From contig OZ024741.1 of NCBI GenBank assembly GCA_964016885.1, forward strand, positions 107,632,001 to 107,696,000: 64,000 nt of DNA, read 5' to 3'. The position numbers and the translations under genes are program-made. Every line of letters starts with the position of its first letter. Within the stretch, counting starts at the first letter, position 1. Below the pieces are notes generated by a model that did not search any database, was not told the origin of the DNA, and saw nothing but the letters and a program-made list of their open reading frames with translations. Source of the stretch: Eledone cirrhosa. Taxonomy: Eukaryota. Shown here piece after piece: positions 1-61,320 of the stretch.

Positions 1-3000
1 CCTAACCATCCAATTCACCACTACACCTAACCATCCAATTCACCACTACACCTAACCATCTAGTTCACCACTACACCTAACCATCTAGTTCACCACTACA
101 GTTAACCATCTAGTTCACCACTACACCTAACCATCTAGTTCACCACTACACCTAACCATCTAGTTCACCACTACACCTAACCATCCAATTCACCACTACA
201 CCTAACCATCCAATTCACCACTACACCTAACCATCTAGTTCACCACTACACCTAGCCATCTAGTTCACCACTACACCTAACCATCCAATTCACCACTACA
301 CCTAACCATCTAGTTCACCACTACACCTAACCATCCAATTCACCACTACACATAACCATCTAGTTCACCACTACACCTAACCATCTAGTTCACCACTACA
401 CCTAACCATCTAGTTCACCACTACACCTAACCATTCAGTTCACCACTACACCTAACCATCTAGTTCACCACTACACCTAACGATCTAGTTCACCACTACA
501 CCTAACCATCTAGTTCACCACTACACCTAACCATCTAGTTCACCACTACACCTAACCATCTAGTTCACCACTACACCTAACGATCTAGTTCACCACTACA
601 CCTAACCATCCTGCTCACCACTACACCTAACCACCCAGTTCACCGCTACACCTAACCATCCAATTCACCATTACACCTAACCATCTAGTTCACCACTACA
701 CCTAACCATCTAGTTCACCACCACACCTAACCATCCAATTCACCATTACACCTAACCATCTAGTTCACCACTACACCTAACCATCTAGTTCACCACTACA
801 CCTAACCATCTAGTTCACCACTACACCTAACCATCCAATTCACCACTACACCTAACCATCTAGTTCACCACGGCACCTAACCATCCAATTCACCACTACA
901 CCTAACCATCCAATTCACCACCACACCTAACCATCCAATTCACCACTACACCTAACCAGCTAGTTCACCACTACACCTAACCATCTAGTTCACCACGGCA
1001 CCTAACCATCGAATTCACCACAACACCTAACCATCCAATTCACCACCACACCTAACCATCCAATTCACCACTACACCTAACCAGCTAGTTCACCACTACA
1101 CCTAACCATCTAGTTCACCACTACACCTAGCCATCTAGTTCACCACTACACCTAACCATCCAATTCACCACTACACCTAACTATCCAATTCACCACTACA
1201 CCTAAACATCTAGTTCACCACGGCACCTAACCATCCAATTAACCACTACACCTAACCATCCAATTCACCACCACACCTAACCATCCAATTCACCACTACA
1301 CCTAACCATCCAGTTCACCACTACACCTAACCATCTAGTTCACCACTACACCTAACCATCTAGTTCACCACTATACCTAACCATCCAATTCACCACTACA
1401 CCTAACCATCTAGTTCACCACTACACCTAACCATCTAGTTCACCACTACACCTAACCATCCAATTTACCACTACACCTAACCATCCAGTTCACCACTACA
1501 CCTAACCATCTAGTTCACCACTACACCTAACCATCTAGTTCACCACTACACCTAACCATCCAATTCACCACTACACCTAACCATCTAGTTCACCTCTACA
1601 CCTAACCATCTAGTTCACCACTACACCTAACCATCTAGTTCACCACCACACCTAACCATCCAGTTCACCACTAGACCTAACCATCTAGTTCACCACTACA
1701 CCTAACCATCCAATTCACCACTACACCTAACCATCTAGTTCACCACTACACCTAACCATCTAGTTCACCACTACACCTAACCATCTAGTTCACCACTACA
1801 CCTAACCATCCAATTCACCACTACACCTAACCATCCAATTCACCACTACACCCAACCATCCAATTCACCACTACACCTAACCATCCAATTCACCACCACA
1901 CCTAACCATCCAATTCACCACTACACTTAACCATCTAGTTCACCACTACACCTAACCATCTAGTTCACCACTACACCTAACCATCCAATTCACCACTACA
2001 CCTAACCATCCAATTCACCACTACACCTAACCATCCAATTCACCACCACACCTAACCATCCAATTCACCACTACACCTAACCATCTAGTTCACCACTACA
2101 CCTAACCATCTAGTTCACCACTACACCTAACCATCCAGTTCACCACTACACCTAACCATCTAGTTCACCACTACACCTAACCATCTAGTTCACCACTACA
2201 CCTAACCATCTAGTTCACAACCATACCTAACCATCCAATTCACCACTACACCTAACCATCCAGTTCACCACTACACCTAACCATCTAGTTCACCACTATA
2301 CCTAACCATCTAGTTCACCATTAAACTTAACCATCTAGTTCACCACTACACCTATCCCATCCAATTCACCACAACACCTAACCATCTAGTTCACCACTAC
2401 ACCTAACCATCTAGTTCACCACTACACCTAACCATCCAATTCACCACTACACCTAACCATCCAATTCACCACTACACCTAACCATCTAGTTCACCACTAC
2501 ACCTAACCATCTAGTTCACCACTACAGTTAACCATCTAGTTCACCACTACACCTAACCATCTAGTTCACCACTACACCTAACCATCTAGTTCACCACTAC
2601 ACCTAACCATCCAATTCACCACTACACCTAACCATCCAATTCACCACTACACCTAACCATCTAGTTCACCACTACACCTAGCCATCTAGTTCACCACTAC
2701 ACCTAACCATCCAATTCACCACTACACCTAACCATCTAGTTCACCACTACACCTAACCATCCAATTCACCACTACACATAACCATCTAGTTCACCACTAC
2801 ACCTAACCATCTAGTTCACCACTACACCTAACCATCTAGTTCACCACTACACCTAACCATTCAGTTCACCACTACACCTAACCATCTAGTTCACCACTAC
2901 ACCTAACGATCTAGTTCACCACTACACCTAACCATCTAGTTCACCACTACACCTAACCATCTAGTTCACCACTACACCTAACCATCTAGTTCACCACTAC

Positions 3001-5700
3001 ACCTAACGATCTAGTTCACCACTACACCTAACCATCCTGCTCACCACTACACCTAACCACCCAGTTCACCACTACACCTAACCATCCAATTCACCATTAC
3101 ACCTAACCATCTAGTTCACCACTACACCTAACCATCTAGTTCACCACCACACCTAACCATCCAATTCACCATTACACCTAACCATCTAGTTCACCACTAC
3201 ACCTAACCATCTAGTTCACCACTACACCTAACCATCTAGTTCACCACTACACCTAACCATCCAATTCACCACTACACCTAACCATCTAGTTCACCACGGC
3301 ACCTAACCATCCAATTCACCACTACACCTAACCATCCAATTCACCACCACACCTAACCATCCAATTCACCACTACACCTAACCAGCTAGTTCACCACTAC
3401 ACCTAACCATCTAGTTCACCACGGCACCTAACCATCGAATTCACCACAACACCTAACCATCCAATTCACCACCACACCTAACCATCCAATTCACCACTAC
3501 ACCTAACCAGCTAGTTCACCACTACACCTAACCATCTAGTTCACCACTACACCTAGCCATCTAGTTCACCACTACACCTAACCATCCAATTCACCACTAC
3601 ACCTAACTATCCAATTCACCACTACACCTAAACATCTAGTTCACCACGGCACCTAACCATCCAATTAACCACTACACCTAACCATCCAATTCACCACCAC
3701 ACCTAACCATCCAATTCACCACTACACCTAACCATCCAGTTCACCACTACACCTAACCATCTAGTTCACCACTACACCTAACCATCTAGTTCACCACTAC
3801 ACCTAACCATCCAATTCACCACTACACCTAACCATCTAGTTCACCACTACACCTAACCATCTAGTTCACCACTACACCTAACCATCCAATTTAGCACTAC
3901 ACCTAACCATCCAGTTCACCACTACACCTAACCATCTAGTTCACCACTACACCTAACCATCTAGTTCACCACTACACCTAACCATCCAATTCACCACTAC
4001 ACCTAACCATCTAGTTCACCTCTACACCTAACCATCTAGTTCACCACTACACCTAACCATCTAGTTCACCACCACACCTAACCATCCAGTTCACCACTAG
4101 ACCTAACCATCTAGTTCACCACTACACCTAACCATCCAATTCACCACTACACCTAACCATCTAGTTCACCACTACACCTAACCATCTAGTTCACCACTAC
4201 ACCTAACCATCTAGTTCACCACTACACCTAACCATCCAATTCACCACTACACCTAACCATCCAATTCACCACTACACCTAACCATCCAATTCACCACTAC
4301 ACCTAACCATCCAATTCACCACCACACCTAACCATCCAATTCACCACTACACCTAACCATCTAGTTCACCACTACACCTAACCATCTAGTTCACCACTAC
4401 ACCTAACCATCCAATTCACCACTACACCTAACCATCCAATTCACCACTACACCTAACCATCCAATTCACCACCACACCTAACCATCCAATTCACCACTAC
4501 ACCTAACCATCTAGTTCACCACTACACCTAACCATCTAGTTCACCACTACACCTAACCATCCAGTTCACCACTACACCTAACCATCTAGTTCACCACTAC
4601 ACCTAACCATCCAATTCACCACTACACCTAACCATCCAGTTCACCACTACACCTAACCATCTAGTTCACCACTACACCTAACCATCTAGTTCACCATTAC
4701 ACTTAACCATCTAGTTCACCACTACACCTAACCATCCAATTCACCACAACACCTAACCATCTAGTTCACCACTACACCTAACCATCTAGTTCACCACTAC
4801 ACCTAACCATCCAATTCACCACTACACCTAACCATCCAATTCACCACTACACCTAACCATCTAGTTCACCACTACACCTAACCATCTAGTTCACCACTAC
4901 AGTTAACCATCTAGTTCAGCACTACACCTAACCATCTAGTTCACCACTACACCTAACCATCTAGTTCACCACTACACCTAACCATCCAATTCACCACTAC
5001 ACCTAACCATCCAATTCACCACAACACCTAACCATCTAGTTCACCACTACACCTAACCATCTAGTTCACCACTACACCTAACCATCCAATTCACCACTAC
5101 ACCTAACCATCTAGTTCACCACTATACCTAACCATCTAGTTCACCACTACACCTAACCATCTAGTTCACCACTACACCTAACCATCCAATTCACCACTAC
5201 ACCTAACCATCCTGCTCACCACTACACCTAACCATCCAATTCACCACTACACCTAACCGTCCTGCTCACCACTACACCTAACCATCCTGCTCACCTCTAC
5301 ACCTAACCATCCACTTCACCACTACACCTAACCATCCAATTCACCACTACACCTAACCATCCTGCTCACCACTACACCTAACCATCCTGCTCACCACTAC
5401 ACCTAACCATCCAATTCACCACTACACCTAACCATCTAGTTCACCACTACACCTAACCATCCAATTCACCACTACACCTAACCATCCTGCTCACCACTAC
5501 ACCTAACCATCCTGCTCACCACTACACCTAACCATCCAATTCACCACTACACCTAACCATCTAGTTCACCACTACACCTAACCATCCAATTCACCACTAC
5601 ACCTCACCATCCTGCTCACCACTACACCTCACCATCCTGCTCACCACTACACCTAACCATCCTGCTCACCACTACACCTAACCATCCTGCTCACCTCTAC
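1..5700. repeat. 25-bp tandem satellite (consensus CCTAACCATCTAGTTCACCACTACA) with ~2.4-kb higher-order repeat
   Basis: Continuous 25-bp period with central variants CTAGT/CCAAT/CCAGT/CCTGC. Rare variants recur at +2426 (positions 101/2527, 255/2681, 352/2778). Confidence 0.98.
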
Positions 5701-26306: not shown

Positions 26307-27500
26307 CTATCCGTTAGGGTATAACGTGGGGCTGTAATACAGGAAAGTTTTGTGCAATTTATGTTTACAAGCCGAAATTGCCTCAGATCTTTTGTTTAAG
26401 ATGTGGTCTGTAGCGTAGAGTATTTCCAGGGCCTCAGCGGCGCAGAGGTCACATGGTCTTTTATTTCCGTTATACGATCTAGCCCTAGCTAGGATCTCCC
26501 AGTGTAACTTATATTGGGTGTGGTTGTCTTTTAGACTCCAGATATAAGCTGAAAGTGACGTCATATTCCTTCTTAGAGGGTAACGAAAAGAATGGGTATG
26601 CATGTAGAGACGCTGCTTGAAACTATTGGCGGTTAACCCTATGTAGGCCCTACGGGACGTGGGTGTTACAACCTTACATTTGTAGACAATGTTATTAGAG
26701 AGGCATTTCCCGGAAACTGGGCAATCAGCCCGATTCCTACAATTACAGTTAGTACTAACTACAGGGTTGCACGTGTTCCTACGGCTAGGTAGTTTAGCTA
26801 AATTTGAAGCTGTGATGTTATGTGCAAGGTTAGGAGTCGTAGAGTAAGAAATTTTAATAGTATTTCTATTAAAAATGTTACTATATTTATGTGTAGGGGG
26901 AAAATGCTTCGTAATAAGGGAAAGAAAGATCTTAGCTAATGGTGTGGCCACCTCCATATTATATGGTGGGTTAAACCAACAAATGTGACGGGATCTATTT
27001 CTTCTAGGTCTATTTTCGTACTCTGTATATGCTACCTTATCGACAAATCCACTTCGAGCAAGAGCTTCATTGTAATAAGTGGAATGGTCGTTGAAAATGC
27101 GCTCGTTGGTGGAAAGACGGGAAAGCCTCAACGAAACGTTTCTTACCAGGTTCTTGGTTATGCTGGCAGGATGGTTGGAATGCTTACTTATGTAATTAAG
27201 CGTATCATTCGGCTTACTATACGGGTAATACAACCCATTCAATAAATTGAGGGTAACGTCGAGGTAATTAACGACCGAGAGATTGGCCTCAACCTGTATA
27301 GAGAGGTTGAAGCCTTTAAAGAAGGCTGTGAGTTCTTTTCTGAACCTGTCGCAAGCACGAGGTCCGCACTTAGTCATGGTCAAAAGACCATCGTCACGGT
27401 ACAAACCACCGCCCGCGTTGGGGAATTCGTCCTTGATAGAGAAAAGAAGGAAAAGGCCAATAAGATCAGTAACCTCCGCAGAGTCACTGGCGCCCATACT
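26307..27500 (-). CDS. PLE polyprotein, C-terminal part: RT (MGASDSAEV, LYRDDGL), thumb, GIY-YIG endonuclease
   Basis: CNCR..CPVSGKCL, NIVY..AYIGLT..FKQRLYMH, CDLC..E..ILNKRSEAISACKH. The first ~33 aa of the predicted ORF (27501-27599) come from the inverted pLTR. Confidence 0.93.
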   Translation of the reverse strand, partial: SMGASDSAEVTDLIGLFLLFSIKDEFPNAGGGLYRDDGLLTMTKCGPRACDRFRKELTAFFKGFNLSIQVEANLSVVNYLDVTLNLLNGLYYPYSKPNDTLNYISKHSNHPASITKNLVRNVSLRLSRLSTNERIFNDHSTYYNEALARSGFVDKVAYTEYENRPRRNRSRHICWFNPPYNMEVATPLAKIFLSLITKHFPPTHKYSNIFNRNTIKISYSTTPNLAHNITASNLAKLPSRRNTCNPVVSTNCNCRNRADCPVSGKCLSNNIVYKCKVVTPTSRRAYIGLTANSFKQRLYMHTHSFRYPLRRNMTSLSAYIWSLKDNHTQYKLHWEILARARSYNGNKRPCDLCAAEALEILYATDHILNKRSEAISACKHKLHKTFLYYSPTLYPNG

Positions 27501-27660
27501 CTTTGTCTTTGCGCGTAATTGTCTTTGCGCGTAATTGTTTTTCACCGCTCCTATTAATGACGTATTATTCGTTTTTTCCCGTTCTTTACCACGAACCAAA
27601 GTATCGTCTTCCTGTCTTCCTCCGGTTGCAACGTTTTTTGAAATATCCAGTTCTGCGTTT

Positions 27661-27736
27661 ACAGATTGACTTTGTTAGTTTCAGAAGATCCCGTTAAGGG
27701 TGAAAGCAGCGATTCTTTGCTTAAACTTTAATCTGT
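27661..27736 (+). ncRNA. Hammerhead-like fold with CAGAAGA core in inverted 5' pLTR
   Basis: Same fold as 25306; stem I AGTTT/AAACT extended by ACAGATTG/TAATCTGT. Confidence 0.65.
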
Positions 27737-58224: not shown

Positions 58225-58513
58225 CGTATGTATGTGCGTGTGAGTGTGTATACTTGGGCATGAATATCAGCGTGTGTTTAAGTTTGTGTTTATATCCTAT
58301 ATTATAGCGGGTCGACAAAAGTGATCGAGAAAATATGCACCAGACTTGAAAAGCAAATACTGTGGTCGAAATGATTAATGAAACCAAGGTAGTGCTCAAA
58401 TATGTCCGCAGTTTGCTTACTGAATCAAGCAAAAGAATAAAAGAATATATATATATATAAAATTAAATAATTAAGTCAAATATTTAAAATTCAGCTTCGT
58501 TTATTAAAGGTGT

Positions 58514-58570
58514 ACTGCTATATATATATTTCCGTGACAGCCATCCTTCGCTGTGACCTCATCAGGCAGT
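58514..58570 (-). ncRNA. Type I hammerhead (slightly decayed)
   Basis: actgc-CTGATGA-ggtcacagc[gaaggatg]gctgtcacg-GAAA-tatatata-TA-gcagt. Confidence 0.7.
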
Positions 58571-58657
58571 CCGGAGTAACCAAACCAACCTGCGCACTTT
58601 ATCGAGTGCTCCATTCTGGATACTGAGGTGTCGGTAAACAACCAACATATACTCAAA

Positions 58658-58691
<34 letters not shown>

Positions 58692-58760
58692 AAAAAGAGA
58701 TGAAATCGAAAATGCAACTGGAGTCTTATTTTTTAAAAAAATATATATATTTATTTGGTT

Positions 58761-58798
58761 CCTTTACCGGTTTCGCAGTTCTTCTGCTTTTCAAAAGG
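58761..58798 (-). ncRNA. Minimal hammerhead with U3-A8 core
   Basis: cctt-TTGAAAA-gcag[aagaa]ctgc-GAAA-ccgg-TA-aagg. Confidence 0.8.
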
Positions 58799-59272
58799 TG
58801 AGTTGAGATGGAGGGTCTGTGGTTTTTCTCACATCTGGTTGGTCTCTGAATGTTACATGTTTTATATGGAAAAAGTGGCTCGAAATACCATGTTTTTCGA
58901 GAAGTAATTTGATTGGTTTGTCAATAATTATAATAAATTTCGCGCCAGTTCGCGTTACAATAGTTCTTCAAATAAGAGGGGGGGTTGTCACAAGTTGTTT
59001 TTTCATATATGAGTGTTTGAATTTCTTTTTACTTGAAGTAAAAAGAAATTCAAACACTCATATATGAAAAAAACAACCTGTGACAACCCCCCCTCTTATT
59101 TGAAGAACTATTGTAACGCGAACTGGCGCGAAATTTATTATAATTATTGACAAACCAATCAAATTACTTCTCGAAAAACCTGGCATTTCGAGCCACTTTT
59201 TCCATATAAAACAAGTAACATTCAGAGACCAACCAGATGTGAGAAAAACCACAGACCCTCCATCTCAACTCA

Positions 59273-59310
59273 CCTTTTGAAAAGCAGAAGAACTGCGAAA
59301 CCGGTAAAGG
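59273..59310 (+). ncRNA. Minimal hammerhead with U3-A8 core
   Basis: Identical inverted copy of 58761. Confidence 0.8.
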
Positions 59311-59441
59311 AACCAAATAAATATATATATTTAAAAAAAAAATAAGACTCCAGTTGCATTTTCGATTTCATCTCTTTTTCTTTATACTTTCACTCGTGTA
59401 GGACACCTCGGTTATTTTTCATTTTGTAAAAAAAACCTCAC

Positions 59442-59480
<39 letters not shown>

Positions 59481-59483
59481 TAA

Positions 59484-59524
<41 letters not shown>

Positions 59525-59536
<12 letters not shown>

Positions 59537-60468
59537 TGTGGTTGTCTGTCTGTCTATCGATTTTTGGCACACATCTCCTCTTAGAATCTCTGACGGAATT
59601 GCACCGAAATTGCTATACTTGTACATTGAGCCCTAGCGAAGACATCGGAAAAAAAAATTTCAAATTGACCCACCCTATGTGACGAAATCGAATATAATGT
59701 ATCGATTTTTGAGCGTAAGTTATCAGTTATTTCCCTTTGTTCTGTTTACATTGAGCGTCTTACGTAAAAAATTACGCTGGCTTTCTCAGCGTTTAAAATG
59801 ACATTAACACAATACACGAACAGTTGTCGAGCCAGCAAAATATTGACCTGCAAAATTCATCAGTTCGAACACTAAGCTTCCGTTTTGCTTCATTTCCATT
59901 TAAAAGCATTTTAAAACAATATTTTTACTTGAAAACAAGTCTATTTAAAGACTACATAAAACAAGCAAATATTTCGTCGTTAGGCGTGCAGACAAACAGT
60001 CGTGCAGACAGACAGTAGTGCAGAGAGGTGATATACGCGTGCAGACAGATAGTCGTGCAGAGAGGTGATATAGGCGTGCAGACAGACAGTCGTGCAGAGA
60101 GGTGATATAGGCGTGCAGACAGACAGTCGTGCAGAGAGGTGATATAGGCGTGCAGACAGACATAACTGATAATTTGGTTACGCTAATGTTTTTCTCTGCA
60201 TTGCAGTGTTTACATTTTCGATCTTTGTTAATAAATAACCAGTGCAGTTTCTATCCCCAGCATCCTCTTTTGTTATAACATTCGGGTTATCGTTATGTTT
60301 TCTTAACTTCATAAGGCATATTGTTGGTTGAGGGAATATTAATCAAAAACACCACATGCAAGTCTGCACAGTAGACACTACAGTTTTTAAGCCAAGAAAG
60401 AAACTTAACATTGTAACTTTAACACAGCTACTGAGCGACCCCGAGCAACGCCGGGCTTTACTGCTAGT
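59525..60468 (+). mobile_element. Non-autonomous Helitron-like element with internal 37-bp minisatellite
   Basis: 5' tatataaaactgtggttgtctgtctgtc; 3' cccgagcaacgccggg..CTAGT; 37-bp repeat at ~59985-60160. Confidence 0.75.
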
Positions 60469-60609: not shown

Positions 60610-61320
60610 TACGAGCTGTCTCACCTATGTACTCTATATTCTCATAGAATATTCTAAGGATATAGTGTACATAGGTGAGACAGCTCGTAGTATAAGAGAA
60701 CGATTACATGAACACTGGCGAGAACTTCAATATAAAGAAGAATCATCAATACTCCACGAACATGCTAAAATAGAACATAAGGGCAAATTAAAGAACATAG
60801 AAATAAAAATAGAACCTACACACAGAAAAGGTGCAATGTTTAGATAAATCACAGAGGCAATAAACATAAATGAACTCCAACCAAAATTAAATAGAAAATA
60901 TGAATGGAATAGCAACATCACAACTTACAATTGGGGACAAAATGAAAACACACAGACATAGAACAAACAACCAACCAGTAACATGTAAATAAACAAATAA
61001 ATAAACAAATATAAACACGCAGACACCCGGATGTAGCACATGCGCAAACTAAGCACGCAACACACACAAAAACAAGATGGCGTAGGACAGAACAAAGGAG
61101 AGGCACAAACACAAAGAAAAGAATCCCCAGTCACTGAAGAGGTCACAGAATGTGTGACGAAAGAACTTTGACAATATATGAACAACCGTCCGGTTATAGA
61201 ACCCACCAACTAACCGGAAATTTATAAATTCTTAAATTTATAAATTTAATTTATAATAAATTGGAGTAAAAGCAACTGGTGCGTTTTTTTCTTATTGGCA
61301 ACATGACCCTCCCAAAGCAT

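Follow-up and report, generated by a model that had tools for sequence, protein, structure and literature searches.

Architecture of the locus

The window is the whole 64-kb stretch of Eledone cirrhosa DNA analysed here. Near its right end, a long palindrome sits within a (TA)n target microsatellite, recognised by sequence on both its left (58661-58688) and its right (59448-59532). Both palindrome arms are, with near certainty, the 3' end (pseudo-LTR, or pLTR) of a Penelope-like element (PLE). The right arm (59036-59386, + strand) is a 5'-truncated copy of this end, identified from the alignment of the arms and from longer copies of the element; the left arm (58685-59035, - strand) is an inverted, 5'-truncated copy that stops at the element's short end, ...CTTTATA, whose final TATA is shared with the left microsatellite. 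Over 351 alignment columns, the left arm and the reverse complement of the right arm show 8 mismatches and 1 gap (97.4%); the 37 bp nearest the central base, G59035, match perfectly. An earlier note on this DNA had described arms of ~350 bp with few mismatches and a 1-nt centre at G59035, which is borne out (351-nt arms, nine differences). The same note extended the palindrome from 58685 to 59447. The mirrored part ends at 59386, and the remaining 59387-59447 (+ strand) is a 61-nt tail of the same element that is carried by the right arm only; in tandem copies, this tail continues into the ORF1 leader.

At the junction of the arms lies TT-G-AA (59033-59037), a self-complementary microhomology of 2+2 nt around the central G. 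The assembly contains a single copy of the 25-mer at this exact junction. The right arm contains a promoter-like region (59155-59237, + strand; function inferred) with CCAAT at 59155, TATAAAA at 59205-59211 and a sharp 5' boundary shared by many copies at ~59234-59237. Its mirror image in the left arm spans 58834-58916 (- strand), and by sequence and arm alignment the TATAAAA there lies at 58860-58866 (- strand). As the earlier note had stated, each arm also carries a minimal hammerhead motif, on the + strand at 59273-59310 and on the - strand at 58798-58761, supported by the arm sequence and a genome-wide pattern.

A different repeat family, with 1,483 candidates, has left an inverted stub directly to the left of the palindrome (58480-58688), and the palindrome sits in the terminal (TA)n of that stub. 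The stub contains a decayed C3-G8 minimal hammerhead (- strand, ~58505-58569) with the stem III palindrome TATATA. Hammerhead-like minimal motifs of other families occur at 61130 (+), 48444 (-), 32674 (+, apparently decayed) and 53828 (-); the regular-expression scan of the window is incomplete, having missed the motif of the palindrome itself. Elsewhere in the window, a 455-aa open frame (26310-27674, - strand) resembles a reverse transcriptase (RT) fragment of another PLE family, with YRDD, and its printed part is near-identical to a frame at a second locus (L039). A 25-bp unit, repeated 228 times with 92% matches, makes up a satellite with strong G/C strand skew at positions 1-5700, and a 37-bp tandem repeat of ~5 copies lies at 59982-60182.

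The parent element and its hammerhead

In this genome the arm sequence is a repeat that is both young and abundant. A search of the 3.0-Gb assembly with the arm gave 1,079 candidates, 40 of which were scored, the best at 96-99% identity. The hammerhead pattern has 12,108 exact genome matches as compared to 0 for the reversed control, so the match is not due to chance. Family copies reach varying distances in the 5' direction, and the longer ones encode RT followed by a C-terminal GIY-YIG endonuclease. In two of two frames from loci outside the window (L034 and L035), GIY-YIG (PF01541) exceeds the Pfam cut-off and RVT_1 falls slightly under it (E 1.2e-6; 28.8 bits vs 29.6). The protein of the parent element contains DKG, YLDD, CxxxxCxxC and CCHH motifs, and a linker of the CX2-5CxxC type, CGRSNCGTC, is located 29 aa N-terminal of the GIY-YIG core. 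Among 20 loci picked by their 5' coding region, 11 have a direct upstream copy of the element end, with the tail entering the ORF1 leader through the same junction. These direct upstream copies are the partial-tandem pLTR structure of PLEs. In L034, the 5' copy is inverted.

The order of RT and GIY-YIG, the DKG, CGRSNCGTC and CCHH motifs and the hammerhead in the pLTR are shared with Neptune/Nematis-type PLEs, and this placement by motifs suggests that the element belongs to that type. Membership in Naiad/Chlamys was rejected, given an endonuclease that is C-terminal rather than N-terminal and the presence of the hammerhead. The element departs from the canonical single-ORF form: ORF1 (400 aa) overlaps the RT-endonuclease frame, which lies in the -1 frame. 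Frameshift-split ORF1 is listed among some PLE types, with no clade given, in the Fig. 1 legend of Craig et al. 2021 (PMC8557442), and by that legend a -1-frame ORF1 is an allowed PLE variant. A slippery T TTT TTA (U UUU UUA in RNA) lies in the ORF1 frame at 20 of 20 loci (L065-L084); in L068, read in element sense, frames 928-2130 and 2040 onward overlap. From these sequence features, the parent element likely uses programmed -1 frameshifting at U UUU UUA. Pseudoknot-free folding of the region 3' of the slippery site gave no unusually stable structure (z -0.7 to +0.2). ORF1 has six homologs at 38-49% identity, five of which end in FL...DTxW, as does the ORF1 of this family.

Each arm reads CCTT-TTGAAAA-GCAG-AAGAA-CTGC-GAAA-CCGG-TA-AAGG at the hammerhead, in which CCTT/AAGG forms stem I, UUGAAAA the core and GCAG/CTGC stem II. 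The motif has the minimal-hammerhead core: a Watson-Crick N3-N8 pair, U4 G5 A6, A9, G12 A13 A14 and a UH cleavage site. U3, A8, G5, A6 and GAAA are almost invariant in 88-89 arms, a set that includes pattern-selected loci and a few duplicates; positions 3 and 8 are invariant in 89 of 89, leaving no within-family variation in either column. The U3-A8 core recognised in the earlier note agrees with published U3-A8 minimal hammerheads (Cervera and De la Pena 2014, PMC4209133, available text). Published minimal hammerheads commonly have an additional base separating position 9 from 10.1, which is absent here: UUGAAAA is followed directly by GCAG. As compared to the Cercyon PLEs of Schistosoma mansoni, the family shares U3-A8, G10.1-C11.1, a palindromic stem III and a short stem I; it differs in a stem II of 4 bp rather than 7-8, in lacking the extra base between A9 and G10.1, and in its ~12,000 near-identical copies rather than heterogeneous families (PMC4209133, available text). 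Rfam models at gathering score returned 0 matches in the 64-kb window.

The claim of a palindromic stem III of the dimer type also held up, in that two copies are predicted to co-fold through ACCGGU at -22.5 kcal/mol; in the right arm the corresponding ACCGGT lies at 59300-59305, and cleavage is predicted after GUA at 59306. The suggestion of two hammerheads stands for the motifs themselves. As they lie on opposite strands, a single RNA holds only one of them, and in a read-through RNA that hammerhead is predicted to be wholly buried and paired within the long hairpin. With one sense motif per RNA, buried in the predicted hairpin, the palindrome builds no ribozyme dimer. The hammerhead is best described as pLTR cargo; any activity is predicted to come from dimers formed on element RNA and to owe nothing to the palindrome. 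Formation of dsRNA, editing and cruciform extrusion at the palindrome, as envisaged earlier, are possible. Among the public sequencing runs listed as carrying the sequence there was no RNA run, a result neutral on expression. None of the four left-arm point differences is A-to-G on the sense strand, a number too small to be informative on A-to-I editing.

Head-to-head pairs and their junctions

The locus is an ordinary retroelement scar, one among thousands of stubs of a single PLE family in which head-to-head copies are routine. Among the first 100 hammerhead matches listed, all pairs lying in one 30-Mb stretch of one contig, 40 matches make up 20 head-to-head pairs within 3.6 kb. One pair (L050) was removed: both of its arms are tailed, and they stand 3.3 kb apart around an unrelated middle. 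Exactly one arm is tailed in 19 of the remaining 19 pairs, as in the window. The other arm stops at the short site (...CTTTATA, window position 59386) in 16 of 19, and by alignment 13-34 bases short of it in three. Use of this site passes over a longer TA run ~60 nt upstream (59320-59331). The flanks of the pairs are rich in (TA)n. Tail-less arms are also found unpartnered, with no partner in the 6.5 kb upstream (L032, L041).

Partner arms differ by 1.55%, as compared to 3.74% for non-partners, and they share 13.9 minority variants per kb vs 4.2 for non-partners, a value reached in 0 of 3000 permutations. This similarity, together with the shared variants, indicates that partner arms derive from one source. 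Common origin in this sense holds for the pair set, the window's own arms being without a shared private variant. In public contigs there are many inverted joints of the family, and the hot spot is again where the best supported of them lie; joints of this class are therefore unlikely to be assembly artefacts. The exact centre of the palindrome is unbridged among the contig pieces listed from six public runs, which perhaps come from other individuals.

The inner ends of the arms point to a preferred boundary. Both arms start at the window equivalent of 59233-59262 in 12 of 19 pairs, and exact genome matches fall with the start of the probe, from 7,978 (59237) to 4,900 (59234) and 3,027 (59232); the 22-mer 59213-59234 has 1,886. 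Conservation was 29/29 for both probes checked, with probes placed one base off and the copies nearest the window used. TATAAAA (59205) and CCAAT (59155) lie 30 and 80 bases ahead of 59235. Copy ends and motifs together suggest that pLTR transcription likely starts at ~59235, and most stubs would then be run-off copies of the RNA 5' end. The arms in the window run 200 bases past ~59235 and include the promoter-like region, facing outward on both sides. Outward promoter-like sites of this kind would yield RNAs of the same sense, unable to pair with each other.

Twenty junctions (19 pairs and the window) were compared; 14 are clean, and six were set aside as mismatches or insertions break the exact extension. 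Overlap at the junction is at least 1 nt in 11 of the 14 and at least 2 nt in eight, against 43% and 17% under a random-joint null. The tail-less arm extends further 5' in seven of the 14, the tailed arm in four, and the two are equal in three. Neither arm contains the other in 7/14 clean junctions, and in five of these seven non-nested cases the tail-less arm exceeds by 6 to 352 nt. Several loci have a centre of only 0-1 nt (L043, L049, L052, L053). Two loci, L062 (the same as L052) and L064, have centres nearly at the site used in the window, of 0 nt and 2 nt, which makes TACTT(G)AA a reused joining word. In L006, L055 and L020, the centres contain element sequence from close by, duplicated in short tandems or inserted by templating, as if from repeated priming attempts while joining. 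At the column of the palindrome's central base, 0 of 46 covering arms have G on the sense strand, where the element has C. As the + strand carries G at this position, the central G belongs to the left, tail-less arm.

Origin of the palindrome

Taken together, these observations support the earlier reading of the palindrome as an integration product, and its probable origin is a 5'-truncated head-to-head insertion of PLE ends in (TA)n, made from two cDNAs that were primed on opposite target strands and joined at their ends. Such a reaction would involve: nicking of both (TA)n strands by the endonuclease; initiation by RT on the element RNA at two internal TATA-containing sites, one per target strand, 61 nt apart at 59386 and ~59447; and joining of the products. 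Having the same sequence, the two cDNAs can anneal to each other, and in the window they would do so at a short self-complementary word, TTGAA against TTGAA, with four pairs and a G.G mismatch. The annealed ends would then be trimmed and filled in, and retention of one G of the mismatch by repair would account for the 1-nt centre. Most stubs are shorter, because RT would reach the 5' end of the RNA at the pLTR start (~59235) and run off there. The copy in the window, reaching 200 nt beyond that start, would stem from a longer transcript, of which it would represent the 3' pLTR.

Consistent with this proposal, a PLE protein studied in vitro, a predicted dimer, nicks and extends both target strands, and the two internal sites in the RNA at which it starts define the tail (Frangieh et al. 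2024, PMC11167929, available text). This system, PAc (Poseidon, Anolis), shares with the present family the two RT start sites defining a tail, the cutting and extension of both strands and the AT-rich target. Its start sites lie within the ORF and lack homology to the target, in contrast to the TATA words found here, which lie upstream of ORF1 and match (TA)n. Head-to-head products are not explained in the available text of that paper.

The main alternative is self-priming, in which a single cDNA (or antisense RNA) folds back and is copied, and central deletion or repair trims the loop to 1 nt. It has been proposed for PLE palindromes, on an antisense template, in Arkhipova et al. 2013 (PMC3846280, available text), and two features of the pair set agree with it: partner arms are more alike than non-partners, and their 5' ends are often only a few bases apart. 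Fold-back followed by asymmetric central deletion could also yield non-nested arms and microhomology. However, a copy must nest within its template, yet seven of the 14 clean junctions pair the tail with an opposite arm that reaches further 5', and the central G of the palindrome cannot derive from the tailed arm. Self-priming also sits poorly with a second end fixed at one site (16/19) that bypasses the longer TA run, and a plain hairpin fold-back would have a 1-nt loop, which is too tight. We therefore regard self-priming as unlikely. Fold-back second-strand synthesis during integration, as suggested in the earlier note, is disfavoured on the same locus: the tail is on the right arm, and the central G matches the strand of the left arm only.

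The great abundance of the family, a known nested insertion (L025) and the lack of private variants shared by the window arms would also suit two independent insertions head to head, or neighbouring copies that later underwent inversion or gene conversion. This is very improbable, as the family targets (TA)n and the centre of the palindrome is not (TA)n, and as one tail per pair (19/19) with variants shared between partners points to single events. An assembly or chimeric-read artefact is, if anything, slightly less credible again: the exact centre is unspanned among the public contigs listed (the runs perhaps being of other individuals), but the arms differ at 9/351 columns, their asymmetry obeys the tail rule of the family, and independent public contigs carry many of its inverted joints. 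Miniature inverted-repeat DNA transposons look similar, with long inverted arms and a TA target. This possibility, like that of a selected host hairpin RNA gene, deserves almost no credence, since centres vary by copy, the junction of the palindrome is unique in the assembly, and the arms of longer copies continue into an RT-GIY-YIG frame; the miniature transposon reading was rejected on finding the palindrome's centre once in the assembly.

The preferred two-cDNA origin recalls L1 twin priming, in which both target strands prime cDNA, the products are joined at microhomology and an inversion results. In L1 the inverted segment lies upstream and does not overlap the other; here, one segment is copied twice, giving a palindrome. 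Much of the remaining anatomy is familiar from PLEs with an endonuclease (EN+). Their insertions share the head-to-head pLTR, a palindrome at the junction, a tail at one end, a TATA box and start inside the pLTR, an AT-rich or (TA)n target and partial tandems, and differ in a tail of 30-40 nt as compared to 61 nt here (PMC3846280 and PMC8557442, available text); the window copy, in contrast to those published, is without coding sequence. Inverted truncated copies, one-sided tails and a preference for (TA)n are described in the available text of PMC8557442, and that of PMC4209133 reports hammerhead pairs on opposite strands ~100-700 bp apart. All of these features, namely U3-A8 cores, inverted copies, tails on one side and targets of the (TA)n type, are thus already published. 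The difference lies in the junction data, which favour two cDNAs where the 2013 proposal (PMC3846280, available text) invokes self-priming.

A wider model, which could be termed double-copy twin priming, would take the thousands of stubs of this family as a record of the PLE insertion mechanism itself, and we hold it to be slightly better than an even bet. A dimeric RT-endonuclease would prime two cDNAs, one from each target strand, at two fixed internal RNA sites, which would mostly lie in the 5' pLTR; both cDNAs would then run off at the transcription start, and their identical ends would anneal and join at tiny palindromes. A literature search in which subscription papers were mostly out of reach found no paper stating this model. 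If true, one step would explain the tail asymmetry, the 0-1-nt centres and the fixed stub length, and the model would supplant self-priming as the explanation in print for head-to-head repeats of PLEs.

Thousands of such loci form a natural record of the way in which PLE inverted repeats and tails arise, and the value of this one is as part of that record; the process is named as unresolved in the available text of Craig et al. 2021 (PMC8557442). With the junction and end statistics of this young family, the two-cDNA and self-priming models can be tested directly, and its data also indicate a promoter and a frameshift open to assay. Should many of the stubs be intronic, the family would supply long hairpin RNA on a large scale.
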